The notes: generated from the letters alone by a model not told the origin. 53,304 nucleotides of DNA from a virus (IMGVR_UViG_3300028840_002576:1-53304); one strand, 5' to 3'; shown: positions 22,484 to 53,052, numbered from the stretch's first letter. Program-made: numbers and translations.

Positions 22484-22485
22484 AG

Positions 22486-28123: not shown

Positions 28124-28192
28124 AAGTACGAGGCATTTAACCTCAATCATACAAGACCGCCATCCCGAGCGGTATAGAAAAGGAGATTTATC

Positions 28193-28588
28193 ATGGGTTG
28201 GAGAGAAGACGTAAAAATAGGAGTCGGTCGCATTAGCGAACTGTACCTCGGAACAGGCAATGGCGATATGGGAACGAAAGTTACCACCACGCCTGCGAAC
28301 CTGAACCTTGTTACTACAGGCGTTGCCGCTGGTTACAAAGTAGCCAGAGGTACCGTGAGCGCGACAGCTTCAAAAGCAGTTGCAACCGGTCTAACCACCA
28401 TTCTCGGTTTTGCCCTGTCAGTCAATGGAGCCACCGCGACGCTGGTAAACGCAGCGCCTCAGTTGTCAGGAGCCATATCTGGCGGAACCTTGACCGTTTA
28501 CCGTTGGAAGCATACCGGTCCTTCGACAGCCACGCTGATTGCTGCCACCACTGGCGGATCAGTTGCGTGGGTAGCCGTAGGAACCTAA
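28193..28588 (+). CDS. Small A/G/T-rich virion structural protein
   Basis: Beta-rich composition, ends WVAVGT; strong RBS. Confidence 0.65.
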   Translation: MGWREDVKIGVGRISELYLGTGNGDMGTKVTTTPANLNLVTTGVAAGYKVARGTVSATASKAVATGLTTILGFALSVNGATATLVNAAPQLSGAISGGTLTVYRWKHTGPSTATLIAATTGGSVAWVAVGT

Positions 28589-28655
28589 TCAACTAATATG
28601 GGGACAATGGATAATCCGGCGTCCCCATAAATTTAACCTGGGGAGGAACAATACA

Positions 28656-29699: not shown

Positions 29700-29711
29700 G
29701 GGGGGATTATC

Positions 29712-32360: not shown

Positions 32361-33281
32361 ATGGCTATTTCAGTTGCACCAGGAACACCCCAATATAGTG
32401 GGAATTTCATCCCGGAAATATGGTCCGGCAAACTGCTTGTAAAGTTTTATGCCGCCACCGTTTCCGCCGCCATTTGTAACACCGATTATGAAGGCGAAAT
32501 CAAAGACGTAGGTGACAAAGTTCAGGTCCGCACCGTTCCTGATATCGTTATCCGCGATTACGTCAAAAATCAATCCCTGCAGATCCAACGACCCGACTCT
32601 CCCAAGAAAGAGATGCCGATCGACAAAGCCAAATATTTCAACTTTATTTGTGACGACATCGACAAGCATCAGACCGACGTGTCCTTGATGGACTCTTGGA
32701 GCCGCGACGCTTCACAGCAGATGAAAGTCACGGTCGACGAGGAATTCCTTGGCGATGTTTACTCCGATGCCCACGCCTCGAATAAAGGCATCACCGCTGG
32801 CGTCAAGTCCGGCGACATCGATCTCGGAACTACCGGAGATCCTGCAATCATAACGAAAGCCAGTGTCCTCGACTTCTTGGTCGACGTTGGAACCGTTATG
32901 GACGAACAGAACTTACCCGAGGAATCTCGGTATGCCGTAATTCCGCCTTGGATGGCCGGCATGATAAAGAAATCCGATCTCAAAGACGCTTCACTCGCCG
33001 GCGACGGCACAAGCATAATGAGAAACGGACGGATAGGCATGATCGACCGCCTGGTCATCTACGTATCCAACCTGTTAACCTCCGCCACCGACGGCGCCTA
33101 TACCGCTTACCATGCAATCGCTGGTCACAAAGCCGGTATCTCTTGGGCTGCCCAGATGACGAAGATGGAAAGTCTTCGAGCGGAGTCCACCTTTGGCACC
33201 TTGGTTCGTGGCCTGAACGTGTACGGATACAAAGTACTGAAGACCGAAGCCCTCTGCGACCTTTATATCGCGAGAGGATAA
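32361..33281 (+). CDS. Major capsid protein
   Basis: FIPEIWSGKLL, NTDYEGEI...GD.V.V, G.IGMIDRL.IY.SN and F...VRGL.VYGYKVL motifs. Confidence 0.93.
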   Translation: MAISVAPGTPQYSGNFIPEIWSGKLLVKFYAATVSAAICNTDYEGEIKDVGDKVQVRTVPDIVIRDYVKNQSLQIQRPDSPKKEMPIDKAKYFNFICDDIDKHQTDVSLMDSWSRDASQQMKVTVDEEFLGDVYSDAHASNKGITAGVKSGDIDLGTTGDPAIITKASVLDFLVDVGTVMDEQNLPEESRYAVIPPWMAGMIKKSDLKDASLAGDGTSIMRNGRIGMIDRLVIYVSNLLTSATDGAYTAYHAIAGHKAGISWAAQMTKMESLRAESTFGTLVRGLNVYGYKVLKTEALCDLYIARG

Positions 33282-34596: not shown

Positions 34597-35349
34597 ATGG
34601 CAAGCAAGGACGTATCAGACTATCGAGACGAGGTGAGCTTTTATATAAAGAACGCCACCAAATCAACAAATACAACCTTTATCGATAAACAAATAGTCCG
34701 GATCCTGCGTGACTTTTGCAAGGACACCTGGATCTGGCGCTATGATCTTACCGAAATAGACGTAGTCGCCGACCAGGCGAACTATACCTTATCACTACCC
34801 ACGACCGACGGCGCCGCAGAATTGGTAATGGTCGACTGGGTCAAGTACAAATCCGATGGGCTCGATGATGATCAATACACCTACGTCGAGCCTATTAATC
34901 TATTGACCGAAGAAATACCGTCAGGGACCTCGAAGTTCTCCGGTGGATTCGTGGAGAGCTCCGGGAACGCACCGCAAGTATTCTGGGTTGATCCTGACGA
35001 CACCCTATGGATCAAACCGACTCCGAATTCCACAGCAGCAGGCACCGCAAATATGAAGGTCAAAGTCATTGTTATGCCGGCATTGACCGCCACGAAGGCG
35101 CCGATCTTTCTATACAACGACTGGCTGGAAGTAATTGCAAAGGGAGTTGCCGCCAGGGTATGCAATATGGCCGGCGAGCGATGGTATGATCCGAAGCTTT
35201 CTGACAGGTATAGAATGCAGTACGAACAAGCCAAGACCGATGAGGCCGAGGCCCAGAGATGGCAGGGCAAGAACAGGAAGCAGATGGTCATCAGACCTCA
35301 TAAGGCTTACACCGGTGGGGCAAGATCATTTTCAAGGGGAGTCTTTTAA
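34597..35349 (+). CDS. Head-tail adaptor protein
   Basis: R.FC..T.IWR..L, L.I.PTP and W.E.IA.G..AR......WYDP motifs; position in the module. Confidence 0.75.
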   Translation: MASKDVSDYRDEVSFYIKNATKSTNTTFIDKQIVRILRDFCKDTWIWRYDLTEIDVVADQANYTLSLPTTDGAAELVMVDWVKYKSDGLDDDQYTYVEPINLLTEEIPSGTSKFSGGFVESSGNAPQVFWVDPDDTLWIKPTPNSTAAGTANMKVKVIVMPALTATKAPIFLYNDWLEVIAKGVAARVCNMAGERWYDPKLSDRYRMQYEQAKTDEAEAQRWQGKNRKQMVIRPHKAYTGGARSFSRGVF

Positions 35350-37856: not shown

Positions 37857-39181
37857 TGAAGGATTATTCAAGAAAATCCTATATATCAACAAATCCTTAC
37901 CCGGAATACATGAAGGTCAATCCGAGTAAGGCAATCTGGAATACCATCCTTGAGGTGTACCCGTTCCTGTCAGAGTTTTCTCAGAGTCAATTGGGATCAT
38001 TCGATCGATCGGTTGAGGATTACCTGCGACAGTCGGAAAGGAAAAAGCCTTATAACGGCAGGCCATTCGAAATGATGGAGGACGAATTCGAGGGATTTCC
38101 AGGTATTTGGCCGGATCTTCCTCCAGGAGAATTCGACTTTCCATGGTCGACTCCGGGCAATTTACCAACCCCAGACACGTTTACCGGTGGCGCCGCTCAC
38201 TTCTCGGTCAATATCCAATACTGCTATTGCGAGGGCGGCGGACAAGAGGTGACGGCCAGGGGGTCCCAGAATATCCTATCAGTTTCTCCAGAGGTAGGAT
38301 CCATTGACGGAATAGTTGTGCAGAATGCAAGGACATGGGTATTCACATACACCGCTCCTGCGGAGGTATTCGGGGCAGTCGAATTCACTGTAAAGATGGT
38401 GGACCCTACAACAGGACTCGTCGGAAATGCGACTGACAGTATTATTAAATGCTCGACATCTTCATGCTGCGATGATGTCGACGAGATGACCTGGGATAGC
38501 TCAACGAGCGCATCAACGATCAATAGGGAAACAAGCGCAACGGTAGCGGTCCAGGACGGAAGAGGTACTTATACGTGGTCTGTTTCAGGTACCGACGTCA
38601 CCCTCGAGAACGAGACAACAACAGGGACATCCAATACCCTTATTGCCGGCGCCTCAGCGTGCGGAACGGCAGTAATAACGGTTGAGGATGGTTGCGAGAC
38701 GGTTGTTACCGGGGAGGTGCGAGTAGTCGAAGGGAGCTCATGGCAGCAGGAAGGCGGAGATCCTAATTGCTGTATGGGTGGGAATACCGCATACGCAGGC
38801 GGACCCCAGCCAGGAACAGGGTCATATACCCAGACGGTAACCTCTGGAGGAACAAGGCAGAGCGAAACAGTGGCAGGCCCTTCAACAGGAGGCGGATGTA
38901 CCAGTTGTGGGGCTGCGTGTGCGACTGGAGCGGATAATTTCTGTTTAACATGGGGGTCATATAGAAATAATAGTTCGCCGCTATGTTTTAATGGATTTTC
39001 AGGATACTACCCAACACTGCCTCAGTCATCTCCAGATGGATGTTACTGTGCGGATCACGGTGCGAGCCAGTGCGCCGGTGGATCAGGCAGGCAGTGTACG
39101 CCGGCAAACGAAACTGTTTATATAGCGCACAAATATGTTGTTACAAGCCAGGTATGCGAAAAATGGAAATGCAATCCATAA
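37856..39181 (+). CDS. Putative tail-associated protein with Ig-like region and Cys-rich C-terminus
   Basis: G.G.YTWSVSG Ig-like motif; about 20 Cys. Confidence 0.6.
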   Translation: MKDYSRKSYISTNPYPEYMKVNPSKAIWNTILEVYPFLSEFSQSQLGSFDRSVEDYLRQSERKKPYNGRPFEMMEDEFEGFPGIWPDLPPGEFDFPWSTPGNLPTPDTFTGGAAHFSVNIQYCYCEGGGQEVTARGSQNILSVSPEVGSIDGIVVQNARTWVFTYTAPAEVFGAVEFTVKMVDPTTGLVGNATDSIIKCSTSSCCDDVDEMTWDSSTSASTINRETSATVAVQDGRGTYTWSVSGTDVTLENETTTGTSNTLIAGASACGTAVITVEDGCETVVTGEVRVVEGSSWQQEGGDPNCCMGGNTAYAGGPQPGTGSYTQTVTSGGTRQSETVAGPSTGGGCTSCGAACATGADNFCLTWGSYRNNSSPLCFNGFSGYYPTLPQSSPDGCYCADHGASQCAGGSGRQCTPANETVYIAHKYVVTSQVCEKWKCNP

Positions 39182-39190
39182 GGGGGAATC

Positions 39191-39673
39191 ATGGGATTAT
39201 CGGATAAAAGATTTACAGAGATAGCGAATTTATTTAGCGTATTTACGTTCAGCATGATGCAGGGATTTGTGCAAATGTCTAACATGCTGAAAAAACATGG
39301 AATAAGACCGGAAGAGATTGACGAGTACGTTCAAGAAAACCGGGAAGCCATGAATCAGGGCGTAAATTTCAACAGGGATTACATGCAGGGAAAAATCAAA
39401 ATGAAGACATGCCCGAAGTGCGGCGGCGTTATGGAGCTCGAGACGGTTAATACGTGTAAAGGAAATCAGGTACCAGGCGGATTTAAAAGTGTCTATACCT
39501 GCTCGAGATATACAGAGTGCGGCCATCAGATGTTCAGTAAAAATTCAGTGGCAATTGAACAGTATAAACACTGGAAAAAGATCGGCGCATTTGATAAGTA
39601 TCGACAGAAGCGACAGAGGACGCACAACGGACCAGCGATCAATGTTGAGAAGGAAATGGCTAAAGTCAAATAA
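39191..39673 (+). CDS. Zn-ribbon protein
   Basis: CPKCGGVM...CSRYTECGH. Confidence 0.7.
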   Translation: MGLSDKRFTEIANLFSVFTFSMMQGFVQMSNMLKKHGIRPEEIDEYVQENREAMNQGVNFNRDYMQGKIKMKTCPKCGGVMELETVNTCKGNQVPGGFKSVYTCSRYTECGHQMFSKNSVAIEQYKHWKKIGAFDKYRQKRQRTHNGPAINVEKEMAKVK

Positions 39674-39676
39674 ATC

Positions 39677-39700
39677 ACGACATGATGTACATATTATAAG
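39677..39700 (+). promoter_or_regulatory. Class B motif upstream of the ejection-protein genes
   Basis: taaatcACGACATGATGTACATATTATAAG. Confidence 0.55.
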
Positions 39701-39720
39701 CTAATTACAGGAGTTAAAAA

Positions 39721-40629
39721 ATGGCAGATACATGGTATGAATCTAAATCAGCGCCGTCACCAAAAGGGGAGTTTACCCCCGTTAACGTCTCGCAATATAC
39801 AACGGGTGGAACGATGGACGACTACAAGGGATGGGGGACATCATACGGCGGGAACAGATCGACATCTTTTGCCCAGCCAAGAGCGGATTATTTGCAGCAA
39901 GCTATTGATATTTATGACAGATATAACCAACAGCAATCATCTCGTAGCTCTGGTGGGGATGGTGAGGTGTATGTAACTAATTACCCATCAACCTTTAAGA
40001 CCGGTCAATCCGCTGATGAGAATCTTGGACAGCGCGGAGGAGGCGCCTATACCAGGGGAGGGCAGCCGGCATTTCAGAGGACAATCCAGCCTCTTCAGGC
40101 GGTCGAAGTACCAGAGGCTCCAGAGTTCAAGGCAAGAAAATATAAGCCGCCAGAGGAAGATCCGAGAGTCTACTCGAAGGCCAGGGACGAAGCAATGGGT
40201 CCGGGCCTCCGGGCTCTGCGGGAAGGCACCAGGGAGGCGATCTCAACATCTCAATCTCTTGACAATCCGAATGCCAGAGGCCTTTTTATAAAACAGGCCC
40301 TCCAGGGCTACGGCTCAGGTCTCGAGGGCGTATCTTCCGCAGCCGGCAAGGAAGCCAGATCGGTTGCCGGCGCAAAGAGAGCAGAGCAGCTAAACATTTA
40401 CAATACAAAATACCAGGCCAGATCAGCGGCCGACAAAATAAATTATCAGGCTAAGGTTAACCAGATGGCCCAGGACTTCGCCCAGCAACAGCAAATAGCC
40501 CAGGCGAACTATCAGATGCAATTCAATACGGATCCTCGTTTTAAACTGCCCGGAGATACAGGGGCAACAGGAAGCAACTTCGTAAAGGGATTCGGATGGA
40601 AAAAAGCCACTGGTAACTTTTATATGTAA
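39721..40629 (+). CDS. Probable internal virion / ejection protein
   Basis: G/S/Q/A-rich helical composition; position after the nozzle gene. Confidence 0.6.
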   Translation: MADTWYESKSAPSPKGEFTPVNVSQYTTGGTMDDYKGWGTSYGGNRSTSFAQPRADYLQQAIDIYDRYNQQQSSRSSGGDGEVYVTNYPSTFKTGQSADENLGQRGGGAYTRGGQPAFQRTIQPLQAVEVPEAPEFKARKYKPPEEDPRVYSKARDEAMGPGLRALREGTREAISTSQSLDNPNARGLFIKQALQGYGSGLEGVSSAAGKEARSVAGAKRAEQLNIYNTKYQARSAADKINYQAKVNQMAQDFAQQQQIAQANYQMQFNTDPRFKLPGDTGATGSNFVKGFGWKKATGNFYM

Positions 40630-40640
40630 AGAGGATAAAA

Positions 40641-41597
40641 ATGGCAGCTAATTACTCAACAAACCCGACAAACCCCACAAATCAAAACGGCGGAGTGTTG
40701 CCGGCAGATATGCAGGGTCAACAAGGAATGGTACCTCCCCCGGGTGGCATGCAGAATCCCAAGAGTATTAGGGACTATGTTGCCGCAGCCAGGTCAGCTA
40801 AAGCAGTTCCTACGTTTACAAATGTTCCGGAAACGCCAGGATTCTTTATAGATGATAGGCAGCAGTCCGGAGCTATACCAGAGGGACCTCAGAGCGAATA
40901 CGAGTCAATACCTTTCGCCGAGCGTATCAAAATGGATCCATGGAAAAGAGCACAATCGAGAGTCCAGACAATGCTACCTGAACTATGGGAAGCAACCTTT
41001 CCTGGATACCAGCAGGGCGCCACGCTATCGAACGACCAGATGGCCCAGTGGAATAAGGTGGTCCAGAATTTAACCGCGAATCTAATTAAGCATTATGACA
41101 AGCAATTCGAATGGTCCATGAAAAACGAAATGAAGAACGCAGAGACCAGAGAGAAGGATAAGAAATTCTGGCAGTCGAAATTTGTCGATGCACAGTTGAG
41201 AGGACAGCCTGTACGGAAGCCAGACGGAAGCCCGATGACGGAGGCCGAGTTTGTCAATGAGAGATTATCCGCAGCAGATGAGATGAGATTCAAAGAGGAC
41301 GTTACTAAACAGGAAAGGATCTCGTCACAGGCAACGGAGAACCTGACTCCCGGAACCGTAACCAAGGCCATGAAGAAGAACCCTAATCTTGCCAGGGCGA
41401 TACGCCTGCAGATCCGGACCTTCGTGGAGGATGGCGTCGGCCGGAAGCTCAATGACGATGAATACCGGCAGCTAATGAAAAACCCGGATGCCCAGGACCT
41501 TATCAACGAGGCATCTAAGGACGCAGTTGATTATTACTCTGACAAGATCATGGAGGAGTTATCCGGAAAAACTCAGGGAATGGAAGTACCTGAATAA
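40641..41597 (+). CDS. Probable internal virion / ejection protein
   Basis: P/Q/M-rich N-terminus, helical; precedes the giant gene. Confidence 0.6.
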   Translation: MAANYSTNPTNPTNQNGGVLPADMQGQQGMVPPPGGMQNPKSIRDYVAAARSAKAVPTFTNVPETPGFFIDDRQQSGAIPEGPQSEYESIPFAERIKMDPWKRAQSRVQTMLPELWEATFPGYQQGATLSNDQMAQWNKVVQNLTANLIKHYDKQFEWSMKNEMKNAETREKDKKFWQSKFVDAQLRGQPVRKPDGSPMTEAEFVNERLSAADEMRFKEDVTKQERISSQATENLTPGTVTKAMKKNPNLARAIRLQIRTFVEDGVGRKLNDDEYRQLMKNPDAQDLINEASKDAVDYYSDKIMEELSGKTQGMEVPE

Positions 41598-41667: not shown

Positions 41668-44600
41668 ATGGCAGACGAAACACCGAAAATGGATTGGAGC
41701 ATTTTGCTTCAGGATGATGAACCAATTTCAGAAACACCGGCAGTACCAGAGTTGCCGGAACAACCCCAGCAGGAACAGACCTGGGGATCCATTGCTAATC
41801 AAGATTGGTCGGAAGTGGATCCGGTTGACCCTGCTATCCCCGCCGAGCCTGCGCCTTTTTCCTCTGAATATGAGGGGTGGAAGGCTATTAAGGAAGGCAC
41901 GAAAGCACTCCCTAAATATTTCTCTCAAATTCCAAAATCTATTCAAGAAACAAGGAAAGAACTGTTCGACAAGATTGGAGCAGTTGATCCGGTTGAAGCT
42001 ATGCCAGAGGGCGTTCAGGATTTTATGGGCGCCATTGATATAGCCAGAAACCCGCTGGCAGGCCTCGGCAAGCTACTTTCCTATGGCGATGAGCAGGGCT
42101 TCTTTGATGCAGATCAGGATTACGCGAAACGCAAAGAGAATAAAGACACCTATACAAAATACTTTGAAGATCTCACCCAGATGGGACCCCAGACAATCCT
42201 GAACTATGTTGCTGGTGGTATCGGAGGATGGGCCGGCGTCGCAGCAACCGCAGGCGGCCAGATCTACGGTGGATCATATATGAATTTCCGTGAAAAAGGC
42301 AACACTCCCATGGAGTCCATGGCCCTTGCCCTCACCGACACAGCAATCCAGTTGCCGATTGAAGTCCTATTGACAACCGCTATTATCAAAGGTCCCAAGG
42401 GTGCGATGAACCTCGGCAAAAAGCTTCCAGGTGGAAATAAGATATTTACAAATATCGAGAAGGGCCTCAAGACAAAATTTAAGAACGGCGAGAAGTTCGC
42501 CCAGTTTGCGGACAGCTATGCCGGTAGAATTCTCGGCGGTGGTATGGCAGAAGGAGCCGAGGAATTCGTCCAGAGTCTCTCCGGGATCCTGACGGAGCTC
42601 GCCGGCCAGTGGCTTCGAGACGAAGAGATTACCGCGGAAGGAATACGAAAACTCATCAAAGAGAAAACATCAGAGGGCCTATGGTCCGCTCTGGTTGCAT
42701 TCCCCCTCGGTGGTCTCGGTGGTGGCGTTGGTAAAGTTCTCGAGCCAGTCAAGGACAAAAAGGATCCTAACGATAATATCATTCCTGATGCCGGCAAGCC
42801 TGCTATCAATCCGGATCCGGCGACTGAGAAAATCGATGCGGCCAATATCCTCGAGGAGGCCGGCAAGCGATGGCTGGAAGAGGAAGAGGCAGCCGCAGGA
42901 GCTCCCCCGGTAGATGAAACCCAGATAGAGATAGGTCCTGATACCGTTATCGGTGGACCCCAGGAGATCGGTCCGGACACGGTGATCGGTGGTCCCGCTC
43001 AAGACTTTTCAGTAATTGCTGAAGAGCCCGAAACCACTGAAAGATTCAGAGTTGAAACAACCCCGGATCATCCAGCCGCAGAGTTCTATGGCCTGAAAAA
43101 GGGCGATAAGAAACACGCCATATCTATTACAGATAAGGAATCCCCTGCATACAAAGCGACCTTTGTGGCCGAGATGGGCAAAGAGGATGTAGCTATCGCC
43201 AAGAAGGAAATGGAATTCCAGGCCGGCAAGCGCGACGAGGAAGGCTTTATTAATACCTGGATGGCTAACCCGGAAGCTCGGCCGTGGTGGGCATCAAAGC
43301 AGAAGCCGGTTGAATTGAAATCCTACAGCACAGACCTTGAGCAGATATATAACGACTCCATCATGCAGCGTGGGGACCTGAGCATGAGAGAGGAATCATA
43401 TGCAGTCAACAGCTTCAGGGAGTTAATTGAAGAAGATACAGGCGCATCAGACATTTATGGCGATGACTTTATATCTCAGATGAAGGATGAAGAGCTCCGT
43501 CCGGCCCAACGTGCTTGGAAAAATATAATCGAGAAATTTTTTGATCGACCTGTGTTCTATGTAAAAGAGAGCGAGGCCTCCAAGAATGACATGGCAAGTC
43601 CGGTAAAGCAATACAGGGCTGCAGCAAACCCAGTCCAGGGAGCAGTAATCTTATTCGACAACCAGACAGCGGCAAACGTCGGAAGCATGTTCCACGAACT
43701 AACCCACAACATGCGCAAGACAGCGCCACAACTTTACGGAAAGTTACACAAGTTTATCCAGGAGAACGTTGATAAACAGAGCGACGCATTCAAGAGGCTC
43801 GAGCGTGCGGTCAGGAAGGCCTATGGTGGGCGTGACCGTGAGGGACTAATTCAAGAGGAGATCAATACCGCTATCATTACGGACCTTGTAAAGGGTGACG
43901 TATTCCAGGGGGAATTGTTTCGTAAGCTAAAGGCCCAGGACCCCGGAACATTCGAACGCCTTGCAAAGCATATAAAAAATGCTCTCAAAAAATTAGTTGA
44001 ATACATTACCAGGCATAGGAACAAGCCAGGGTATGCAGCACTCCTGAACGATGTTAAAAAAGCGGAGAAAGAAATCGCAAACATCTTTGCAGAATTCCAG
44101 GCTGAAACGCAAAAGGGACCGTGGGTGAGAGGTATGTCGGTTGCAGCCATTAAAAGAAATTCTGAAACCCTTATGCTCGAGCTCAAGAAAGACCAGACAA
44201 TAAATAATAAATTCACCTCCAAGATGGTCGACACAATAAGCAAGAAATTACAGGGTACCGGTGACGCCGGCCAGATGAGAGCGACAATAGAATCATGGAT
44301 CATGAAGGGCGAGATCAAGGAAGAGGAGTATCGATGGTCCGGGCTCGATGAATTCCTGATGTCCTGGGAATTGGCAAACGGCAAAAAGAAAATAACGAAA
44401 GACCGTATCCTGCAGCACATTGCCGAGAACGCCGTCCAGATCGAGGAGGATATTAGGTCAACCACAGGCGAAGATGTTGAGAAAATCGATATACCACAGG
44501 CGGAGGAGGATATCGCCAAGATAGAGTACTACCTGAAGGATTCGTATGGCATAACGCTGCGAAAGGAATTCAGGGGTAACAATCAACCATATTTCAATGA

Positions 44601-47600
44601 GATAATGTTCAAGGATTATGACGAAGACACAAAGCCTTATTACCTTACAGATCCAGGGATAAAAGCAGTTATACTCGAGAAAGCCGGCGAAGAAGCACTT
44701 GAGTTTGTTAATAATGCGGTAAAAACCCAGACAGAGGTTAGTGACTATCGCGCCTTTCTTTACACAAGAGGTGAGGGCGGAGTTTTATACCAAGGTTATG
44801 TTGCAGAGGGTCCTTATAAATCATATTCAGAAGTTCTCTTGTCTGTACCAAATATCGACGACATGGATGGCGGCCATTGGAGGAAGAACAAAAAAGTTAT
44901 CGCCCACGCGAGGGTAACGGAAAGAACTCATCCTGATGGAGATGAAATATTTCATGTCGACGAGATCCAGAGCGACCTACATCAAAGGGGCAGGGTCCAT
45001 GGATACCGTTCAGAGAAGGAAAAAATAAAAGAACTCCCAGAAGGATCTCGAGTTGAACAAATCCCGGTAGTCGGAAAAAGGGCCGGACGCTGGAGAGTAG
45101 AACTCCCGGCTGGAACTAAGACGCAGTACGGTGGATATATATTCAATGGAGACACAAGGGACGAGGCGATACAGAGCGCCCTTGATGAGATGAATCAATT
45201 CCAAAATAAACAGGCTCCTGACGCACCATTCAAGAAGGGCTGGGAGTTACTCGTATTAAAGAGAATGGTCCGAATGGCTGCAGACCAAAACAAGGCTGCG
45301 ATTACGTGGGACATAGGACAGAACCAGGCTGACCGTTATGACCTCAGGAAATTTGTGAAAGAGGTGGGATACTCTATCTCCACTGAGAACTTATGGGCCT
45401 ATGACGATAATGATACAGAGGTTATCAGTGAAGATGTCGAAGTCGATGAGCTTGATAAAATTAAAGAGTATCTCGGCGAAGAGGTAGGCCAAAGACTCAT
45501 AGACAAGATCGAATCGAGGAAGTGGGAACGTGGAGAATACACTACAACCTTTGACGAGGACGAGGGAAAATGGGTGCTTGTAGATCCAAACGGAGAACTG
45601 TTTCACGACCAGGGTGGTGACCTCTTAACATTCGACGAGGAGTATGAGGCCCGTGAAACCCTTGAAGAGTTCCTGGATAGATCCGATGAGCGTGAGGGTG
45701 GCGTTCGCATTAGAGGGCTCGAGCTTGAAACCGGTGGCGAAGGTATGATTGGCTTTTATGACAAGAAGCTTCCTGCCATTGCCAATAAATTCTTTGGTAA
45801 AAAGAAATGGGGCAATTCAAAGGTATTCAAGACAAAGCTTGACGGAACAAGTGAAAATGAAATCGTAAAGCCAGACGTTTATGTTGACGGCGTCCTTGTT
45901 ACAGACAGAAACCTCAACCGGTTCATCAGAAATTTTGAGGATGAGGATATCGACTTCATGATAAAAGAGGCGATTGAGTGGAGGGAAAAGACGACAACAT
46001 ATTCTGCTCATGAACTGAGGGATGATATAGTCAAGTACCTCGAAGGCCTAAAAGAAAAAGGCTCAACGATTGAATGGAAGAATCCGGAAACACAGTTCGA
46101 AGTATGGGCTCTGCCTATAACAAAACAAATGAAGAAAGCTTCGCAAGAGGGCTTGATGCCTCTGTTCCAGAAGAAGCTTGATGTCGACACCAACAAGACA
46201 GCAGGCCCGGAGCTTGCCGCCAGTGCTATTGAGAATGCAGTACTTGGAGTTGGTGAGGTTAAGATAGACAGCGGTGACTTTGCTTCAGGAGATATGCTTA
46301 GGAGTATAGGCTTCGAAAGCACAAGGGCCGGCAATTATAAATTTGACAGGAGGATACCGAAAGATGTTGATATCATTAAAGGACTGTACAAGGCTTCTTG
46401 GAATACAGACCTCGAATCTAATCGGGCCGCAAAGATCGTTCTTGATAAGATCTCTCAGCAGCTTAATAAACAGAAGAGGACGGAACTGGGTCGAGAAGAA
46501 CAGAAGCGAGGTAAGGAAACGCTTAAAGAATACCTTAACGACTCTTGGGAAACCCACAGCATAGCGTCAAAGGAAACCAGTAAGGGTGACCTTCGTGCGA
46601 CAAAGAATATATTGTTAAGGCCAAATGGAGTGAAGTCCGGAAAGGGCCGGCAGTTGATGGTACAGGTATCGAACAACTTCGCCAGGGAAGAAGCGACACA
46701 AATGGGCGACAGTTATTTTGACACCCTATACTCAAAACGAGAGGGATACGACCGTCCATCAGACTTTTGGGAAGTTCCTGAATGGATGGGGCGCCTCGCT
46801 AAATCTATGCCCAAAGCAGACGTCTATGTGGTAAGAAATATTGCAGAGGCAAAGAAGTTTATTGAGCAGGCCGGATATGGCGACAATATTTTCTTCAGTG
46901 CAATGGATGCAAATAAGGACGTCATCAAAACAATTATATCCGATTACAGTGGCAAGGTTAAGATCGGTGGTTATACGGATCCTAATTACTTTGGAAAGAA
47001 AGCAACCTTCCTCGGTAGCCCGGAAGAGGCCGCCCAGTCAGTCGGAGTTGAATTTAAGCCTGGAGTTGATTACAGACATTTCAAGGGTACGAAAACGATA
47101 CCAAGGCTCGAGATGTCCAGGGGATGCCGGCACAAGTGCGCATTCTGCACGGTAGAGAAATCGATAGTTGCCGCAACCGATGAGCAGATCGATGATCAAC
47201 TCGAGAACTTCAAGTCACTGGATTACAAGCTTGTTTATCTGAATGACAAGACCTTTGGCCAGGCAAAGAACTTCGAGAAGCTAATCGATATCAAGAAGAA
47301 GATCGAAGCTGTCAATCCTAATTTCCAGGGATTCATAATCCAGACAACAGCACCACAGTTCTTAAAAATGAGCGATAGCTTTCTCCGGGAGTCCGGCATT
47401 AAGTTTGTCGAGCTCGGAGCAGAGACTATCAATGATGATATCCTCGCCAAGATAAATAAGCCGCACAGGGTAGCTCATATAGAGAAGGCCGCCGAGAAGA
47501 TCCGTAGGCTCAAGATGAACTTTGTCCCCAATATCATGGTTGGCCTTGCAGGAGTTGACAAGGGAAAGCTCTGGACAGAGACCATCAAAACATATGGGAA

Positions 47601-50600
47601 CACCCTCAAATTCTTAAAGAAGCATAAGGATATTGTTTCTCACGTCAATGTATATGTTCTTGCAACATACGAAGGCACCGCCCTTCATGAACAACTCGGA
47701 ACCAATGAAGTGGACTCCGATGAAAACGTCATTGAAAAGTCATGGCTGAAAAATCAAAAGCTTCATGAGAAATTTTATGGCGATGTTCTGGAATACGGAA
47801 CACAGCAATTAAATGAACAAAGAGATCTTGGCGAACTAACAAATGAAGAGATCGAAAAGATGTCTTTCGAGGAGAGGGCTAAATTAATCCTCGGACCAGA
47901 TGCAAGCTTTGACGACATTGACAAACTTGCCGGACAGGCAAAGGATGTTGTTGACAGCTTGACGCCAGACCTGCAGAAAGATATCGAGGATGATATCAAG
48001 AAAGGCGCCAAGGCTGAAGGTGAGCCAGGTACCGAGTCTTATCAAAAGGGACAGTATCAAATATTCGAAATAGCCAGCAAGGCAAAGGGCCTAAAGAAGG
48101 TCCGGAAATATCTTGAAACAGTCGACGAGATGAATGGGCTTCCGGTTACACCAGAGCTTATAGAGAATCTCGGAAGGCTTGCAGACAAGCTATCTTCAGA
48201 CAGAAAGCGAGCAAACAAATTCAAGAAAGTTATACAATATCGAGACGAACTTGCTACAGGAAAGGCAACTCTCAATGATCCAGAATTCGTGAAGAAGTGC
48301 GAGAAGGTAGGAGGTATCCAGCCCTACACCGTGAGACATACCGCTGACAACTTCTTTATAGGTCGGAATATGCGGTATGGTAAATTCGAGGAAGCCGGAA
48401 AGCTATCTATATTCGACACTGGTGACCAGGGGAAGACGACAAAGAAATCGTATATCGATCCTGTCACTGGCCGTACAAAGTATATAGAGAAGAGATACGA
48501 CTCTGAGGGCAACAGGCTTATTGAGGCGCCAATATTCTCAACCGATCGAGCGACCAGGCTGAAGCAGATCAAAAAGATTGTGCTTAAAAATAAGCAATAC
48601 CAGTCATGGTATCAGAACTGGAAAGACTTTATGTGGCAGTTCATAAAGAATGATGTTGACGAGACGAAGTTAAAGAGGATTATAACCATATCCGGCATGC
48701 TCGGCGCAGGCAAATCGCCACAATCACAGCAGGCTATATGGGCCGAAACAATCAATCAACTCGAGCATGGCATGAGGCCTCGTAAAGTTGCCGGCCAAGA
48801 GCTTCCAAAGATCATGGATATCTGGAATGGTAAATATGATGAGCTCCTCGGGAAGACCGATGATGAAAGTATTGCCGAGATCCAGGCAACATTCGGCAGA
48901 AAGATAGGGCCTTACCTGGCAGCCGCGATGGATCCTAATAGTCCTAATGTTCTTGTTCTTGATAGGCATATGCCGAAGGGATGGGGATATAACGTCCTCG
49001 CAACAAAGGATAACCCCCAAGGTGGATGGAATATGCATCCCGCAGTTGAAGCAGAAATATCAAGGGACATATTTGAGGTGGCAAAGGACCTGAAGATTTC
49101 AGTTGCAGGAGTACAGGCCGCATTATGGTTTGACTTCAGAACCCCTGCGGCAGACGTCTCTGACATAGTCGAGCTCTCACAGGTGCAGCCAGGTAAAAAT
49201 GTTCCGTTCGTATTTCACAAGCAGACATTTCCGGATCCTGGAGTTGGTATTCATTACAAAAAAACTCCGATGAAGCCAGGCGATTATGTTGTTGGTGCGT
49301 CAGCAGATGGAAAGGTTAAATATAATTCATACTCAATGACAGATATTGGAGAACGCATCGCCAGAGGTACTAAGGACTGGCCCTATCAACCGGTTGTCTA
49401 TATGTACACTCCAGGCGCAAGGCCGGAGACCTCTGTTCGAGGTGGCGGACGCAAGGGATATACCTTTAAATTTTCGAATCAGAGAATTTATGATGGAGTC
49501 AACGACCCATATAAATACTGGGATACCGCCAGGAGAGAGCACAAGGAGTCTCCAGAGGCCTCACTGACAAACATCTTTCTCACGCTCGTAAAGAGAACGG
49601 ATCAATACGATGGCGCACTTGTTACGCCGGCTCACGGTGACAAGCCATGGATGATGATTTTCGACCAGGCCGCTGTAGACGACTTTCCGGAATTAACGAA
49701 CGTCGGCATCTCAGATATCGTCGAATCTATCGAGGGGAAAAGGGATGTTGTCAGGGCAACCAAGTCGATGGCAAGCAGGGCGAAACAGTTTGAAAAGTAC
49801 CTTAAATGGGTAAAGGATCATGGTAGGAAATATAGCGAGGTAACCATAGAAAGATCTTATTATTCACTTGCCAGGTTCGAGGGTGCAACAAGTGGACAGC
49901 ATGAGCCAGGTATCGGCTTAAAGCTTGATGGTCCATTGAGATCACAGAGAGCTTATCTTGCTGAAGTCGCAATATCAAGAGGACAGCGCGAAGCATACTT
50001 GATTCACGAACCGCGAACGGAAATGGACTATCCGGACTACATTGACTGGTCAGAGGCAAAGATGTTTATATTCAAGGCCATCAATGAATACAATGAAAAT
50101 CCGGAGAAGCTTGCCAAAGACCTTTCTGCAGCAGGCTTGAAGGAATTCAATATAGTAATGTCCCCGTCTTCAGGGATACTGACTATCGAGCAAGTTGTGT
50201 TCTCAGATGAGAATGCAAAGCAGATGGCAGATATCATGGAGAAGTTCGCAGACAAGGGACATCCCCACAACCAGGTAAAAACAATCCATACCGAGGTTAT
50301 CACAGATGAGTCTGGTATGGAAATGATAAAGGAATACTGGGGAAATAAAAAAGGCGAGGAGATTATAGAAAATGCCAAAGAAAGAGGAGAAAAATACCAA
50401 GAAGGATTACGTCGCAGAGTTGATAAGCAGAGGGCTTCTCAGAGAAAAGACACCGGAGATAAAAAACCTAAAGGGTCAGACGATTCTGGACTTGGGACAG
50501 ACCTCCAGGTCAGAGTAGACGACAAGAAGACTCAAGAGGTTCTTGACCGTGTAGGCAGGAACCCTGTAAAAACTATCGACACAATTAAAGAAAAGCTTGA

Positions 50601-53052
50601 CTATAAGCCAGGGAAATTCACGACCTCGTATATCGATAAGCTTCATCCGCTAAAGATGTATGCCGGCGCGAAGTCCTCGAGCTACATGCAGCACAGGTCT
50701 ATACCAGGCGTGCAGTCCTCTATTAATGCAATGATGGAGCACGGTACACTGAAGATGGACAAGTCGGGAGTATTGACGACGGACACAAAAGGCAAGGGCT
50801 TCATACCATTCCTGAAGTCTCTGAAGGGTGATAGCGACAAATTCTTTTATTGGTTAATAGCCCAGAGGGATCAGGCCAGGGAAAAAAGAGACTCGAAATA
50901 TAAACCCATGTTCACGCAAGAGGAACGAAATCGCATATTTTCTTGGACAGGAAAACGGTCGAAAACAGGAAAATCATGGGGCGAGGTTAATGCTGAATTC
51001 AGAAAGTTCAATGACTCAGTCCTGCAGGTAGGCATCGATTCAGGCCTCCTGGATCCGGCGATGGTCGCACAGTTCAGGGATCAATTCTATATTCCGTTTT
51101 ACCGTATATTCGAGGATGAGAATACGACCGCTGAATTTATCAAGGCGCCTGTCAATACAAAGAAGATCATTGCGGCTCAGATCAAAAAGCTGAAGGGATC
51201 TAAGAAAAAGATCGGGGATCCGCTCGAGAATATTCTCGCGAACTGGTCGCACCTTATCAAGCAGTCCATGGCTAACAGTGCCAGGCGATCGTCCTTCAGG
51301 GAATTACAGGACGTATTAACAGAAAACCTGGAGCCGGCAGTTGAAGCGGTACCGTGGAGCGAGACCGTGATATTCAAGTCCGGTGACGATGGAAAAACAA
51401 CATTCGTATACCCGAAGGACAACGTCGAGGTTCTTGGATTTAAAGACAAGGGCAAGACCCAGTTCTTCAAGGTGAATGATCCGGAACTGTTTCAGGCCCT
51501 ATCGCTTCAGAATAACATGAGATTGCCGGCATGGTTGTCAGCGATCCTCGGGGCTCCAAAGGCTCTGTTAACATTCGGTGCCACAATAACGCCGAGCTTT
51601 ATCGCAGCAAATGCAACTCGGGACACGTTGCACACATACACAATAAGCAAGGGATTTAAGCCTTTCTGGGATACCATGAAGGGATTCTATAAAACACTGG
51701 TCAAGGATCAGGACTATGTTGAATATATGGCATCCGGGAATTCATTTGTTGGTAGTTATGTGAAAGCCGAGACCCCGGAAAAATTCTCCAAGTACGCAAA
51801 AAAGATTGCCAAGAAAGAGGGACAGGGCGCACTCCGCAGGATACTGAGCTCACCTTCAAAGCTCTGGAGATTCTGGGAGGGATTTACAGAGGCTTCAGAA
51901 AATGCAACGAGATTAGCCCTATATTCGAAGAGGCGTGCAGAGGGATACAGTATCCTTGAATCATCCTTCGAAGCCCGGGACATAATGGACTTTCAAAAGA
52001 AAGGCGCCAGTCCGGTCATCCAATATTTGATCGCGACAATTCCATTCCTGAATGCCAGGATCCAGGGACTCGCACGCATGGGCTCTGCAATGGCGGAGAA
52101 TCCAAAGATGTATGCATTAAAGGGCGCCTCGGTCGCAATGGCATCAATTGCACTATGGGCCGCCTTCGCAGATGACGATCGATACAAAGAGCTCGAGGAC
52201 TGGGAACGGTTTTCATATTACCATTTCTGGATCGGTGATAAGCATTTCAGAATTCCTAAACCATTTGAGACCGGCGTTATCTGGTCATCAGCATGGACAG
52301 CCGCAGCAGACGTGATCAAGGGCAACAACGAGGCCAAGCATATTACCAGGTTTATTGGTGCCGCTCTTCTTGATACGTTCGCATTCAACCCAGTTCCGCA
52401 GGCAGCCAGGCCAATACTCGAACAGTACATGAACAAGGTATTTTTCACTGGCAGACCGATTGAGTCTATGGGTATGCAATATAAAGAGCCGGCAAATAGA
52501 TATTATCCATGGGATAGTGAATCAGCTATCGTCCTGGGCAAGGCTCTTGGCGTATCTCCCAAGAGGATCCAGGCCCTTATCCGGGGGTATCTGGCAGGCC
52601 TCGGTATGGGAATCATGGGTGCCGCTGATATCATGGTTAGACAATTTGGCGAATGGCCTGAACGTCCGGAATCTGGAATAGAGTCATATCCGATGATCGG
52701 CAGATTTGTCAGGTCAACACCGAACAGATACTCAAGATATCAGAGTGAATTCTATGACATATACGACGAACTTAATCTATTACATAAGAAAGTTAGAGAC
52801 GCTGATGCGGAGGGTGACTTTGCCGGCGCCGAGGAGATCCGGAAGGCGAACCAGAAAAAATTCGAAGCATTCCCACAGGCTAAGATTATTCGCCGGAATC
52901 TTGCACGCATACGAAAAAACACTCTTGCAATATGGAAAGACAAAACAATGAGCGCCGAAAATAAACGCGAGGAGCTCGACAGATTAACAACTAAAAGGAA
53001 TACCCAGGTCAAAGAATTTTATGACTGGTATAAGAAAGCTATAAACTCTTGA
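41668..53052 (+). CDS. Giant polyvalent internal virion protein (metallopeptidase-like, radical SAM, HhH-like, LPD38)
   Basis: 3794 aa; HELTH at ~aa 676; DEIQSDLHQRGR at ~aa 1098; CRHKCAFC at aa 1820-1827; LDRH...QAALW at ~aa 2432-2487; LPD38-like Y.EL.DWER..Y.HF......RIPKPFE.G at ~aa 3505-3535. Confidence 0.9.
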   Translation: MADETPKMDWSILLQDDEPISETPAVPELPEQPQQEQTWGSIANQDWSEVDPVDPAIPAEPAPFSSEYEGWKAIKEGTKALPKYFSQIPKSIQETRKELFDKIGAVDPVEAMPEGVQDFMGAIDIARNPLAGLGKLLSYGDEQGFFDADQDYAKRKENKDTYTKYFEDLTQMGPQTILNYVAGGIGGWAGVAATAGGQIYGGSYMNFREKGNTPMESMALALTDTAIQLPIEVLLTTAIIKGPKGAMNLGKKLPGGNKIFTNIEKGLKTKFKNGEKFAQFADSYAGRILGGGMAEGAEEFVQSLSGILTELAGQWLRDEEITAEGIRKLIKEKTSEGLWSALVAFPLGGLGGGVGKVLEPVKDKKDPNDNIIPDAGKPAINPDPATEKIDAANILEEAGKRWLEEEEAAAGAPPVDETQIEIGPDTVIGGPQEIGPDTVIGGPAQDFSVIAEEPETTERFRVETTPDHPAAEFYGLKKGDKKHAISITDKESPAYKATFVAEMGKEDVAIAKKEMEFQAGKRDEEGFINTWMANPEARPWWASKQKPVELKSYSTDLEQIYNDSIMQRGDLSMREESYAVNSFRELIEEDTGASDIYGDDFISQMKDEELRPAQRAWKNIIEKFFDRPVFYVKESEASKNDMASPVKQYRAAANPVQGAVILFDNQTAANVGSMFHELTHNMRKTAPQLYGKLHKFIQENVDKQSDAFKRLERAVRKAYGGRDREGLIQEEINTAIITDLVKGDVFQGELFRKLKAQDPGTFERLAKHIKNALKKLVEYITRHRNKPGYAALLNDVKKAEKEIANIFAEFQAETQKGPWVRGMSVAAIKRNSETLMLELKKDQTINNKFTSKMVDTISKKLQGTGDAGQMRATIESWIMKGEIKEEEYRWSGLDEFLMSWELANGKKKITKDRILQHIAENAVQIEEDIRSTTGEDVEKIDIPQAEEDIAKIEYYLKDSYGITLRKEFRGNNQPYFNEIMFKDYDEDTKPYYLTDPGIKAVILEKAGEEALEFVNNAVKTQTEVSDYRAFLYTRGEGGVLYQGYVAEGPYKSYSEVLLSVPNIDDMDGGHWRKNKKVIAHARVTERTHPDGDEIFHVDEIQSDLHQRGRVHGYRSEKEKIKELPEGSRVEQIPVVGKRAGRWRVELPAGTKTQYGGYIFNGDTRDEAIQSALDEMNQFQNKQAPDAPFKKGWELLVLKRMVRMAADQNKAAITWDIGQNQADRYDLRKFVKEVGYSISTENLWAYDDNDTEVISEDVEVDELDKIKEYLGEEVGQRLIDKIESRKWERGEYTTTFDEDEGKWVLVDPNGELFHDQGGDLLTFDEEYEARETLEEFLDRSDEREGGVRIRGLELETGGEGMIGFYDKKLPAIANKFFGKKKWGNSKVFKTKLDGTSENEIVKPDVYVDGVLVTDRNLNRFIRNFEDEDIDFMIKEAIEWREKTTTYSAHELRDDIVKYLEGLKEKGSTIEWKNPETQFEVWALPITKQMKKASQEGLMPLFQKKLDVDTNKTAGPELAASAIENAVLGVGEVKIDSGDFASGDMLRSIGFESTRAGNYKFDRRIPKDVDIIKGLYKASWNTDLESNRAAKIVLDKISQQLNKQKRTELGREEQKRGKETLKEYLNDSWETHSIASKETSKGDLRATKNILLRPNGVKSGKGRQLMVQVSNNFAREEATQMGDSYFDTLYSKREGYDRPSDFWEVPEWMGRLAKSMPKADVYVVRNIAEAKKFIEQAGYGDNIFFSAMDANKDVIKTIISDYSGKVKIGGYTDPNYFGKKATFLGSPEEAAQSVGVEFKPGVDYRHFKGTKTIPRLEMSRGCRHKCAFCTVEKSIVAATDEQIDDQLENFKSLDYKLVYLNDKTFGQAKNFEKLIDIKKKIEAVNPNFQGFIIQTTAPQFLKMSDSFLRESGIKFVELGAETINDDILAKINKPHRVAHIEKAAEKIRRLKMNFVPNIMVGLAGVDKGKLWTETIKTYGNTLKFLKKHKDIVSHVNVYVLATYEGTALHEQLGTNEVDSDENVIEKSWLKNQKLHEKFYGDVLEYGTQQLNEQRDLGELTNEEIEKMSFEERAKLILGPDASFDDIDKLAGQAKDVVDSLTPDLQKDIEDDIKKGAKAEGEPGTESYQKGQYQIFEIASKAKGLKKVRKYLETVDEMNGLPVTPELIENLGRLADKLSSDRKRANKFKKVIQYRDELATGKATLNDPEFVKKCEKVGGIQPYTVRHTADNFFIGRNMRYGKFEEAGKLSIFDTGDQGKTTKKSYIDPVTGRTKYIEKRYDSEGNRLIEAPIFSTDRATRLKQIKKIVLKNKQYQSWYQNWKDFMWQFIKNDVDETKLKRIITISGMLGAGKSPQSQQAIWAETINQLEHGMRPRKVAGQELPKIMDIWNGKYDELLGKTDDESIAEIQATFGRKIGPYLAAAMDPNSPNVLVLDRHMPKGWGYNVLATKDNPQGGWNMHPAVEAEISRDIFEVAKDLKISVAGVQAALWFDFRTPAADVSDIVELSQVQPGKNVPFVFHKQTFPDPGVGIHYKKTPMKPGDYVVGASADGKVKYNSYSMTDIGERIARGTKDWPYQPVVYMYTPGARPETSVRGGGRKGYTFKFSNQRIYDGVNDPYKYWDTARREHKESPEASLTNIFLTLVKRTDQYDGALVTPAHGDKPWMMIFDQAAVDDFPELTNVGISDIVESIEGKRDVVRATKSMASRAKQFEKYLKWVKDHGRKYSEVTIERSYYSLARFEGATSGQHEPGIGLKLDGPLRSQRAYLAEVAISRGQREAYLIHEPRTEMDYPDYIDWSEAKMFIFKAINEYNENPEKLAKDLSAAGLKEFNIVMSPSSGILTIEQVVFSDENAKQMADIMEKFADKGHPHNQVKTIHTEVITDESGMEMIKEYWGNKKGEEIIENAKERGEKYQEGLRRRVDKQRASQRKDTGDKKPKGSDDSGLGTDLQVRVDDKKTQEVLDRVGRNPVKTIDTIKEKLDYKPGKFTTSYIDKLHPLKMYAGAKSSSYMQHRSIPGVQSSINAMMEHGTLKMDKSGVLTTDTKGKGFIPFLKSLKGDSDKFFYWLIAQRDQAREKRDSKYKPMFTQEERNRIFSWTGKRSKTGKSWGEVNAEFRKFNDSVLQVGIDSGLLDPAMVAQFRDQFYIPFYRIFEDENTTAEFIKAPVNTKKIIAAQIKKLKGSKKKIGDPLENILANWSHLIKQSMANSARRSSFRELQDVLTENLEPAVEAVPWSETVIFKSGDDGKTTFVYPKDNVEVLGFKDKGKTQFFKVNDPELFQALSLQNNMRLPAWLSAILGAPKALLTFGATITPSFIAANATRDTLHTYTISKGFKPFWDTMKGFYKTLVKDQDYVEYMASGNSFVGSYVKAETPEKFSKYAKKIAKKEGQGALRRILSSPSKLWRFWEGFTEASENATRLALYSKRRAEGYSILESSFEARDIMDFQKKGASPVIQYLIATIPFLNARIQGLARMGSAMAENPKMYALKGASVAMASIALWAAFADDDRYKELEDWERFSYYHFWIGDKHFRIPKPFETGVIWSSAWTAAADVIKGNNEAKHITRFIGAALLDTFAFNPVPQAARPILEQYMNKVFFTGRPIESMGMQYKEPANRYYPWDSESAIVLGKALGVSPKRIQALIRGYLAGLGMGIMGAADIMVRQFGEWPERPESGIESYPMIGRFVRSTPNRYSRYQSEFYDIYDELNLLHKKVRDADAEGDFAGAEEIRKANQKKFEAFPQAKIIRRNLARIRKNTLAIWKDKTMSAENKREELDRLTTKRNTQVKEFYDWYKKAINS
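42928..42996 (+). repeat. In-frame tandem peptide repeat EIGPDTVIGGP x2
   Basis: Identical peptide with synonymous nucleotide divergence. Confidence 0.85.

Follow-up and report, generated by a model that had tools for sequence, protein, structure and literature searches.

The giant virion-type protein encoded at the 3′ end of IMGVR_UViG_3300028840_002576, a linear virus entry of IMG/VR (53,304 bp, completeness estimated at 85%), carries what its predicted structure presents as an intact-looking two-domain radical S-adenosylmethionine (SAM) enzyme with the class B/AprD4 architecture and a single predicted [4Fe-4S] site. This whole stretch of DNA, positions 1–53304, is referred to below as the window. 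The module's family is large and mainly viral; it travels as a cassette from one polyvalent protein to another and also occurs as stand-alone genes. The best overall explanation, to which we give roughly an even chance, is that a constrained radical SAM module is delivered by an ejection protein and acts early in infection as an effector.

Radical SAM module of the giant protein

The module lies in the middle of an open reading frame (ORF) that spans most of the last 12 kb of the window. Conservation was assessed in an alignment of 281 full-length modules, comprising 172 from proteins of at least 1000 amino acids (aa), 90 from proteins of at most 480 aa, and 19 from proteins of intermediate length. 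The features of the module are as follows (nucleotide positions in the window).

41668–53052, + strand: giant ORF (P0001), 3794 aa, uninterrupted (ORF list and translation)
46630–47817, + strand: radical SAM module, aa ~1655–2050, boundaries from homologues
46642–47046, + strand: N-terminal Rossmann-like (B12-binding-like) domain, five predicted strands with connecting helices (DSSP of the model)
46897–46899, + strand: S1744, invariant Ser of the FSA(L/M)D strand, Ser in 100% of the 281 modules
46966–46974, + strand: G1767-G1768-Y1769 (GGY), 99%, 98% and 98% conserved in the 281 modules
47110–47562, + strand: radical SAM core PF04055, aa 1815–1965, Pfam E 3e-13, 50.7 bits (gathering cut-off 29.5)
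47125–47148, + strand: CxxxCxxC motif, C1820/C1824/C1827, predicted [4Fe-4S] ligands, invariant in 281 of 281 modules

A sequence-only reading of the window had described a complete radical SAM enzyme at 46650–47810, an extent that agrees with the limits defined here by homologues. These align to residues ~3–398 of the translated segment 46627–47868. All seven peptides quoted in that reading are in frame in the one uninterrupted ORF, namely IFFSAMDAN (aa 1741–1749), VKIGGY (1764–1769), RLEMSRGCRHKCAFC (aa 1813–1827, nt 47104–47148), VYLNDKTF (1856–1863), SGIKFVELGAETINDDILAKINK (aa 1909–1931), NIMVGL (1955–1960), and LATYEGT (1998–2004); the third of these ends in the CxxxCxxC motif, which occupies nt 47125–47148 as claimed. 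The giant protein contains only four cysteines in 3794 residues (1820, 1824, 1827, and 2211), three of which form the motif. The expected number of CxxxCxxC occurrences from composition is 4e-6, so the radical SAM motif is far beyond chance. Among 311 relatives, aa 1651–2050 is covered in 265–310, but either flank in at most 50; thus, the module is a sharply bounded cassette.

Profile searches agree with this assignment. The Radical_SAM family is matched by all 32 aligned members of the alignment used for modelling (A1), and a six-frame Pfam search returned it at nt 47110–47562 with 55.7 bits. Of the two families proposed as a check on the assignment, Radical_SAM was thus recovered well above its cut-off, whereas the B12-binding family PF02310 gave no match for the giant protein. 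A family profile searched against the PDB recovered RimO (E 2.5e-10), 9ccb (1.8e-7), and AprD4 (8e-6). The module searched as a single sequence against PDB chains gave nothing significant, the best E-value being 0.08, for an oligopeptidase.

Conservation of the cysteine triad is complete in the 281 modules, in line with what had been anticipated for a functional enzyme. Approximately 25 further positions are invariant or nearly so, equally in the 172 fused and the 90 solo modules; in the N-terminal domain they include E1702, P1704, W1706, S1744, and the GGY triplet. We liken S1744 to the SxL element and G1767-G1768 to the GG element of cobalamin-binding domains. Across the alignment, no cysteine column outside the triad reaches 30%, and no histidine is conserved in the N-terminal domain. 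Since no cysteine outside the triad is conserved, an auxiliary cluster of the MiaB/RimO type is excluded.

Predicted structure

An AlphaFold2 model of the module, built from the 32-sequence alignment A1, has a mean predicted local distance difference test score (pLDDT) of 93.6 and a predicted TM score (pTM) of 0.90. The five strands of the N-terminal domain are placed at model residues 9–14, 64–69, 88–92, 111–115, and 126–128, and the radical SAM barrel follows. The predicted fold includes the partial TIM barrel, the absence of which had been named beforehand as speaking against a radical SAM enzyme. This two-domain model bears out the description of the module as complete.

Searched with Foldseek, the PDB yielded 139 matches at or below E 0.001; the 50 listed are all radical SAM enzymes. 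AprD4 ranks first (E 2e-14, TMq 0.63), followed by MtaB, RimO, MiaB, OxsB, MgmA/QCMT, TsrM, CysS, and TokK. Re-scoring of the structural matches with VIA-align gave the following values, with the root-mean-square deviation (rmsd) where recorded.

9ccb (MgmA/QCMT): Z 21.9, 316 aligned residues, rmsd 3.5
AprD4 (6fd2): Z 21.6, 354 aligned residues, rmsd 3.6
CysS: Z 19.8
RimO: Z 19.4
MiaB: Z 19.3
OxsB: Z 18.5
TsrM: Z 17.6
Barrel-only matches (NifB, MqnE, HydE, and viperin): Z 14–16

The alignments of 9ccb, AprD4, CysS, RimO, MiaB, OxsB, and TsrM all begin within model residues 1–8. Because these seven matches span both domains, the N-terminal domain belongs to a known two-domain architecture and is not a chance neighbour of the barrel. 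The Rossmann-like segment had been proposed to lie where class B enzymes bind cobalamin; indeed, the predicted fold of this domain matches those of 9ccb, CysS, OxsB, and TsrM.

Comparison with known radical SAM enzymes

Class I cobalamin enzymes (QCMT/MgmA 9CCB, CysS, OxsB, TsrM, and TokK) share with the module a five-strand Rossmann domain followed by the barrel. However, identity is only 11–16%, and all curated cut-offs are missed by hundreds of bits. The module is also shorter (~395 aa), lacks the C-terminal domains of TokK, OxsB, and CysS, and sits inside a phage virion protein. Its best NCBIfam matches are B12-binding radical SAM families (TIGR04072, HpnJ, and PhpK), all confined to the core and far under their cut-offs (TIGR04072, 40 bits against 360); ArsL is also among the matches. 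In the ESM Atlas, a 'B12-binding domain-containing radical SAM' cluster is one of the three nearest clusters. PF02310 appears below threshold on the N-terminal domain of two of the 32 A1 members and, in addition, of P0023 (25.1 bits) and a homologue from Aliirhizobium (24.1 bits).

AprD4, a cobalamin-independent 1,2-diol dehydratase, gives the longest aligned stretch among the top matches (354 residues), with an identity of 15–16% and a profile match restricted to the core. Its substrate is an aminoglycoside, whereas the phage family has nothing tying it to aminoglycosides. MiaB, RimO, and MtaB have the same two-domain layout and a close core, including a 'GxPGET'-type strand, but the module lacks both their auxiliary-cluster cysteines and their TRAM domain.

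Class I B12-dependent radical SAM enzymes are described as binding cobalamin base-off without a histidine ligand (PMC12931638), and the absence of a conserved histidine in the N-terminal domain is therefore compatible with base-off cobalamin binding. The fold alone cannot decide cobalamin use, since AprD4 and ArsL are reported to have Rossmann-related domains and yet to bind none (PMC12931638). Most speculatively, the chemistry of the module may be either cobalamin-assisted, as in class B, or a cobalamin-free rearrangement or dehydration of the AprD4 kind.

Family, cassette behaviour, and selection

Among 1.84 billion cluster representatives searched, 735 proteins match the module with E-values of at most 1e-3, and 295 with at most 1e-30; the family comprises at least 295 clusters at 50% identity. 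One cluster member is named 'radical SAM protein [Zetaproteobacteria bacterium]'. The module is present in 115 giant proteins of metagenomic phages, of 2086–6640 aa, with 38–100% identity. According to precomputed Pfam assignments, its partners in these are DUF7178 (37 proteins), ART-PolyVal (34), PF26092 (20), and LPD38 (16), with InPase (9), GNAT (7), His_Phos_1 (6), and others less often; NUDIX also stands beside the module in giant proteins. Fusions of LPD38 with radical SAM, as well as stand-alone homologues, had been suggested as objects of a search, and both exist. As to PF26092, it is precomputed for 20 of the 115 giants (P0007, P0009, P0012, and others), and our own copy of Pfam gave no match to it in P0009 or P0037.

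Another 115 proteins, of 227–725 aa, match at E up to 1e-5; many are 380–420 aa long, with a query coverage of ~94%. In IMG/VR, 76 loci encode a relative: 52 in frames of at least 1113 aa, 21 as stand-alone genes of 377–562 aa, and three cut by contig ends. Small non-structural ORFs surround the solo copies, a setting that fits an early function. A tblastn search of 50,697 cultured-phage records gave no match for the module and none for a stand-alone homologue. PHROGs contains no family for the module, the lone match covering 50 residues at E 0.0057.

Measured against a related phage locus (L002), non-synonymous divergence (pN) has its minimum within the protein, 0.098, in the module; the preceding region has 0.318, the following one 0.191, and the C-terminal region 0.114. 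At synonymous sites, divergence is saturated (pS ~0.73). Similarly, identity to P0003 is 91% in the module versus 62% immediately upstream. With the lowest non-synonymous divergence and saturated synonymous sites, the module is evidently subject to strong purifying selection and no relic.

Carrier protein

The giant ORF is the final gene of the + strand structural block, at the 3′ end of the window, and its C-terminal part is conserved in other phages.

50626–53004, + strand: conserved C-terminal region including LPD38, aa 2987–3779, phrog_18222 E 2e-101
52174–52668, + strand: LPD38, aa 3503–3667, Pfam E 3e-38

Fusion of the radical SAM enzyme to an LPD38 virion-type protein, as first proposed from the sequence, is therefore real. 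At E up to 1, Pfam adds only a spurious Gag_p24 to Radical_SAM and LPD38 on the giant protein, and NCBIfam matches on the whole protein are confined to the radical SAM region. With tblastn, the C-terminal 808 aa match 55 records of cultured phages. Among the matching proteins, those of Aeromonas phage phiARM81mr (annotated 'putative virion structural protein') and Vibrio phage 1.232.O are ~3200 aa long; the E. coli phages PTXU04 and Pondi are likewise represented, together with pelagiphages and Page-group Bacillus phages. The alignment with PTXU04 extends over 99% of the length of the C-terminus, with 27% identity.

Known LPD38 polyvalent proteins (phi24B gp47, PTXU04_00025, phiARM81mr p69, and Vibrio phage 1.232.O gp28) resemble the carrier in being giant, in lying at the end of the structural genes, and in sharing a homologous C-terminal region of ~800 aa. 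None of the cultured examples, however, has the radical SAM module. The locus of Vibrio phage 1.232.O (L086, record 19865–29743) encodes a 3292-aa relative of the carrier that lacks the radical SAM module and owes its annotation to an N6-adenine DNA methylase domain, an illustration of cassette exchange within a conserved LPD38 scaffold.

The carrier thus displays the features of LPD38-type polyvalent proteins: it is a giant multi-domain protein, LPD38 is present, the context is one of structural genes, and there is swapping of the radical SAM domain among relatives. We infer that it is a polyvalent, ejection-type protein, and by analogy its packaging and ejection with the DNA are plausible. 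In the virion proteome of phage phi24B, the LPD38 protein gp47 is reported to be abundant, although the reconstruction does not show it, and it has been proposed to be an encapsidated ejection protein (bioRxiv 10.64898/2026.04.10.717836). A CRISPRi-ART study reports that PTXU04_00025, also with LPD38, is critical for efficient infection (bioRxiv 10.1101/2023.09.18.558157). Iyer et al. (2017) view polyvalent proteins as effectors injected together with DNA (PMC5512222).

In the literature searched, no description of a radical SAM module in phage polyvalent or virion proteins was found, in agreement with the earlier statement that no characterised example was known. The word 'radical' is absent from the main text of Iyer et al. 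(PMC5512222), the domain tables of which lie outside the main text, and a paper on N4 names radical SAM solely with regard to the HExxH fold. In one paper that names both polyvalent proteins and radical SAM, the two are unconnected, the mentions being an entry of the reference list and a passage on DndC. The module family and its place in ejection proteins are hence undescribed in the searchable literature, whereas polyvalent proteins with swappable enzymes and the radical SAM superfamily are already known.

The host range of the relatives bears on the fate of the cluster. The closest cultured relatives of the portal protein are those of Rhizobium phages (32% identity), pelagiphages HTVC103P, HTVC104P, and HTVC115P, Roseobacter CRP phages, and Sinorhizobium phage phiM6. 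The lineage of Rhizobium phage RHph_TM3_14A is among the closest cultured ones. For the C-terminal region, the closest relatives are from phages of Aeromonas, Achromobacter, E. coli, Vibrio, Pelagibacter, and Bacillus. We take these named hosts to be aerobes, which makes the fate of an oxygen-labile cluster in the free particle a real question. The suggestion that the phage probably infects an anaerobe finds no backing in the Rhizobium, Pelagibacter, and Roseobacter-group hosts of the portal relatives; likewise, the hosts of the C-terminal relatives and the isolates with cellular homologues described below, Halovulum marinum and Aliirhizobium smilacinae, give no specific pointer to anaerobes. 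No tRNA genes that might hint at the host were found in the window.

DUF7178 and cellular homologues

Clues to the substrate come from neighbouring genes. In a survey of 20 stand-alone genes (L073 was left out because its layout duplicates that of L072), the sole recurrent neighbour is DUF7178, found at seven loci by clustering and Pfam and at eight with a local hidden Markov model. It is directly downstream of the stand-alone gene in L058 and L070. Overall, counting fusions as well as genes no more than 10 kb from the module, DUF7178 accompanies it at 29 of the 84 loci scanned.

L058:5982–6584, + strand: DUF7178 (PF23802) gene, with homologues in L051, L054, L062, L064, L065, L067, L070, and L080

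A model of DUF7178 built from seven sequences (pLDDT 85.8) is predicted to have an HhH-GPD DNA-glycosylase-like fold. In a structural search, the top 22 rows all belong to the HhH-GPD glycosylase superfamily, after which Z drops to 4.9. The best match is TM1821 Ogg (Z 11.1, 175 aligned residues), followed by Mag1, AGOG, EndoIII, MutY, OGG1, and the queuine-salvage enzyme DUF2419; the corresponding Foldseek E-values are weak, at 0.18 or higher. DUF7178 has an invariant K109 and D129, 20 residues apart, resembling the Lys/Asp pair of bifunctional HhH-GPD enzymes. The name 'DUF7178' was not found in a literature search. The family occurs in 44 cultured phage records, including gp9 of Roseobacter phage SIO1 and gp9 of a cyanopodovirus, and since these 44 gave no radical SAM match, its link with the module is not obligate. 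Directly upstream of the stand-alone gene, L072 and L074 alone carry a D12 DNA methyltransferase.

A parallel to the module–DUF7178 association is provided by phage M6 gp53, a radical SAM isomerase of thymidine hypermodification resembling spore photoproduct lyase, which acts on DNA bases and is described as encoded beside an HhH glycosylase-like enzyme (PMC8989533). It nevertheless belongs to a different clade: the template on which it models, spore photoproduct lyase, is absent from the 50 structural matches listed for the module. Unlike the virion-protein domain considered here, gp53 is a stand-alone, replication-phase enzyme.

A scan of genome contigs, with one genome for each of 185,579 species, revealed seven loci with cellular homologues. 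These include the isolates Halovulum marinum and Aliirhizobium smilacinae, together with metagenome-assembled genomes labelled Dehalococcoidia, Polyangiaceae, Neptuniibacter, and Saccharimonadales. The homologues of the two isolates are 29–30% identical to the window module and 48% to each other, and retain 27 (Aliirhizobium) and 25 (Halovulum) of the 27 family invariants.

L084:5404–12866: Aliirhizobium smilacinae locus, radical SAM homologue with aldolase and phosphorylase
L082:3730–6660: Halovulum marinum locus, radical SAM homologue with aldolase and phosphorylase

Each of the two genes has a class II aldolase and a PNP_UDP_1 phosphorylase beside it; between the genomes, the aldolases share 52% identity and the phosphorylases 35%. 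The Aliirhizobium operon also encodes an aldehyde dehydrogenase, a PduO-type cobalamin adenosyltransferase, and an amino-acid-type ABC transporter. The PduO gene beside this one cellular homologue is only a hint with regard to cobalamin. The genes around the two homologues could process a nucleoside-like substrate or product, or else salvage 5′-deoxyadenosine. Among 301 genomes of the class and 401 of the family, the Aliirhizobium-type copy was found only in the query genome, and the same holds for the Halovulum-type copy among 401 genomes of its family; cellular copies are therefore rare. Collectively, the viral and cellular partners cut N-glycosidic bonds, which weakly favours a nucleoside, a nucleotide, or a DNA base as the substrate.

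Proposed role and alternative explanations

Polyvalent ejection proteins are thought to deliver the first-minute weapons of a phage. In the explanation proposed here, the LPD38-type carrier would be packaged in the capsid and ejected with the DNA, so that the module would reach the host cytoplasm at the very start of infection. It would arrive either as a holoenzyme or as an apoprotein to be loaded by the Fe-S machinery of the host, and a host flavodoxin or ferredoxin would reduce the cluster. SAM would then be cleaved to the 5′-deoxyadenosyl radical, initiating a reaction by hydrogen abstraction that might benefit the phage as a counter-defence or takeover effector. The step that reaches furthest is the target itself: a nucleoside, nucleotide, or DNA base may be what the enzyme acts on as infection begins. 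In a more sweeping version, tailed phages, among them lineages with cultured relatives that infect aerobic marine and soil bacteria, would charge their capsids in advance with a radical SAM enzyme, possibly one assisted by cobalamin, that is injected along with the genome; this version is put forward tentatively and at a probability clearly below an even one.

Several observations weigh against this explanation. Since phages of aerobes are the nearest cultured relatives, a packaged oxygen-labile cluster would be exposed to air. The giant protein of the window has no DUF7178, either by Pfam or in the locus scan, and the association seen elsewhere may reflect only a shared status as 'early effector'. 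Unlike most DNA-binding enzymes, the module is acidic, with a median isoelectric point of 5.9 in the family and 7.2 here, and direct binding to DNA is thus not favoured. The phosphorylase and aldolase beside the cellular homologues could be explained by salvage of 5′-deoxyadenosine as a by-product. Finally, the Pfam cut-off for B12 binding (32.1 bits) is never reached.

An unlikely alternative is that the enzyme acts late, in the producing cell, where it would modify progeny DNA before or during packaging, or a virion component; the giant protein itself would be a possible target, and its presence in the particle would be incidental. The gene does lie in the late structural block, and SAM, reductant, and Fe-S assembly would be supplied by the producing cytoplasm, so that no oxygen-labile cluster would have to persist in particles of phages with aerobe-infecting relatives. 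Phage M6 gp53 offers a precedent, being described as a radical SAM enzyme that acts on DNA after replication (PMC8989533). On the other hand, late action sits poorly with the stand-alone genes among small non-structural ORFs, with the ART-PolyVal, InPase, GNAT, and NUDIX domains beside the module in giant proteins, and with the view of polyvalent proteins as injected effectors taken by Iyer et al. (PMC5512222).

The module could instead serve as a consumer of SAM, lowering the SAM pool or making 5′-deoxyadenosine and thereby crippling SAM-dependent restriction or other defences. Phage T3 has a SAM-degrading enzyme of similar function, and the PNP-family phosphorylase and class II aldolase next to the cellular homologues, which are enzyme types of 5′-deoxyadenosine salvage, suggest a high output of this compound. 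We nevertheless consider such a role improbable: the ~25 invariants outside the cluster motif, including those of the N-terminal domain, argue for a specific substrate or cofactor site, and radical SAM enzymes are generally slow and need one electron per turnover, and one or a few injected copies would deplete little.

That the module is a decayed or purely structural remnant without catalysis would account for the scores of all curated NCBIfam radical SAM models, which are far under their cut-offs, but is very hard to reconcile with a triad invariant in every module, the lowest non-synonymous divergence in the protein, high model confidence, and invariants common to the fused, solo, and cellular forms. 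The relic reading was rejected on the grounds of the invariant triad, the strong constraint, and the confident model. A methylthiotransferase of the MiaB/RimO type, thiomethylating host tRNA or a ribosomal protein, is scarcely credible in spite of the two-domain matches to RimO and MiaB, the first place of RimO among PDB profile matches, and the 'MiaB' label that some database sources give to relatives: with no conserved cysteine beyond the triad there is no auxiliary cluster, Pfam finds no TRAM domain and the module ends near aa 2050, and TIGR00089 scores 29.3 bits against a cut-off of 251. On the missing auxiliary-cluster cysteines and this score, the MiaB/RimO identity was rejected, and with it the 'MiaB-like' description in the sequence-only reading.

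An early effector delivered by an ejection protein thus remains the preferred explanation. If an injected enzyme is indeed at work, a nucleotide, a defence signal, or the entering DNA would undergo radical chemistry in the earliest stage of infection. The module would then be the first Fe-S radical enzyme to be injected, and phage effectors would gain a new class; other phages would use the same family as an early gene, and a few bacteria would have captured it into a nucleoside-type operon. Activity after injection would widen phage effector chemistry to the activation of unreactive C–H bonds, and it would have to be asked how an oxygen-labile cluster lasts in the virion or is rebuilt afterwards. 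The radical SAM module is in any case a standard cassette of polyvalent proteins in uncultured phages. If active, it would also offer enzymology a compact scaffold of 395 aa, of the class B or AprD4 type, and the stand-alone forms and the two bacterial operons are tractable entry points to the substrate.

Other features of the window

The recognisable genes of the window are all on the + strand.

1339–2754, + strand: DnaB-like helicase
2714–4051, + strand: exonuclease
4261–5145, + strand: ClpP-like protease ('head maturation protease')
18770–20401, + strand: large terminase
22486–24651, + strand: portal
25922–28123, + strand: tail protein
32361–33281, + strand: major head protein
34597–35349, + strand: virion structural protein
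43693–43707, + strand: HELTH (HExxH) motif of the giant protein, aa 676–680, motif only, single occurrence

The ClpP-like ORF adjoins the helicase and exonuclease genes and is ~17 kb from the portal and head genes. Directly 5′ of the giant gene, five consecutive ORFs of 835, 441, 160, 302, and 318 aa (35349–41597, + strand) have no PHROG match. Within the giant protein, the HELTH region may belong to a processing peptidase of the zincin type, such as other polyvalent proteins have; Pfam gives no peptidase match for it at E up to 1. The translation also shows a Gly/Ala-rich hydrophobic stretch near the N-terminus (aa ~170–360, nt ~42170–42750, + strand), for example GGIGGWAGVAATAGG, which may be a membrane-inserting part of the ejection protein. 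This stretch is followed by a short tandem duplication, IGPDTVIGGP occurring twice at aa ~430–455.

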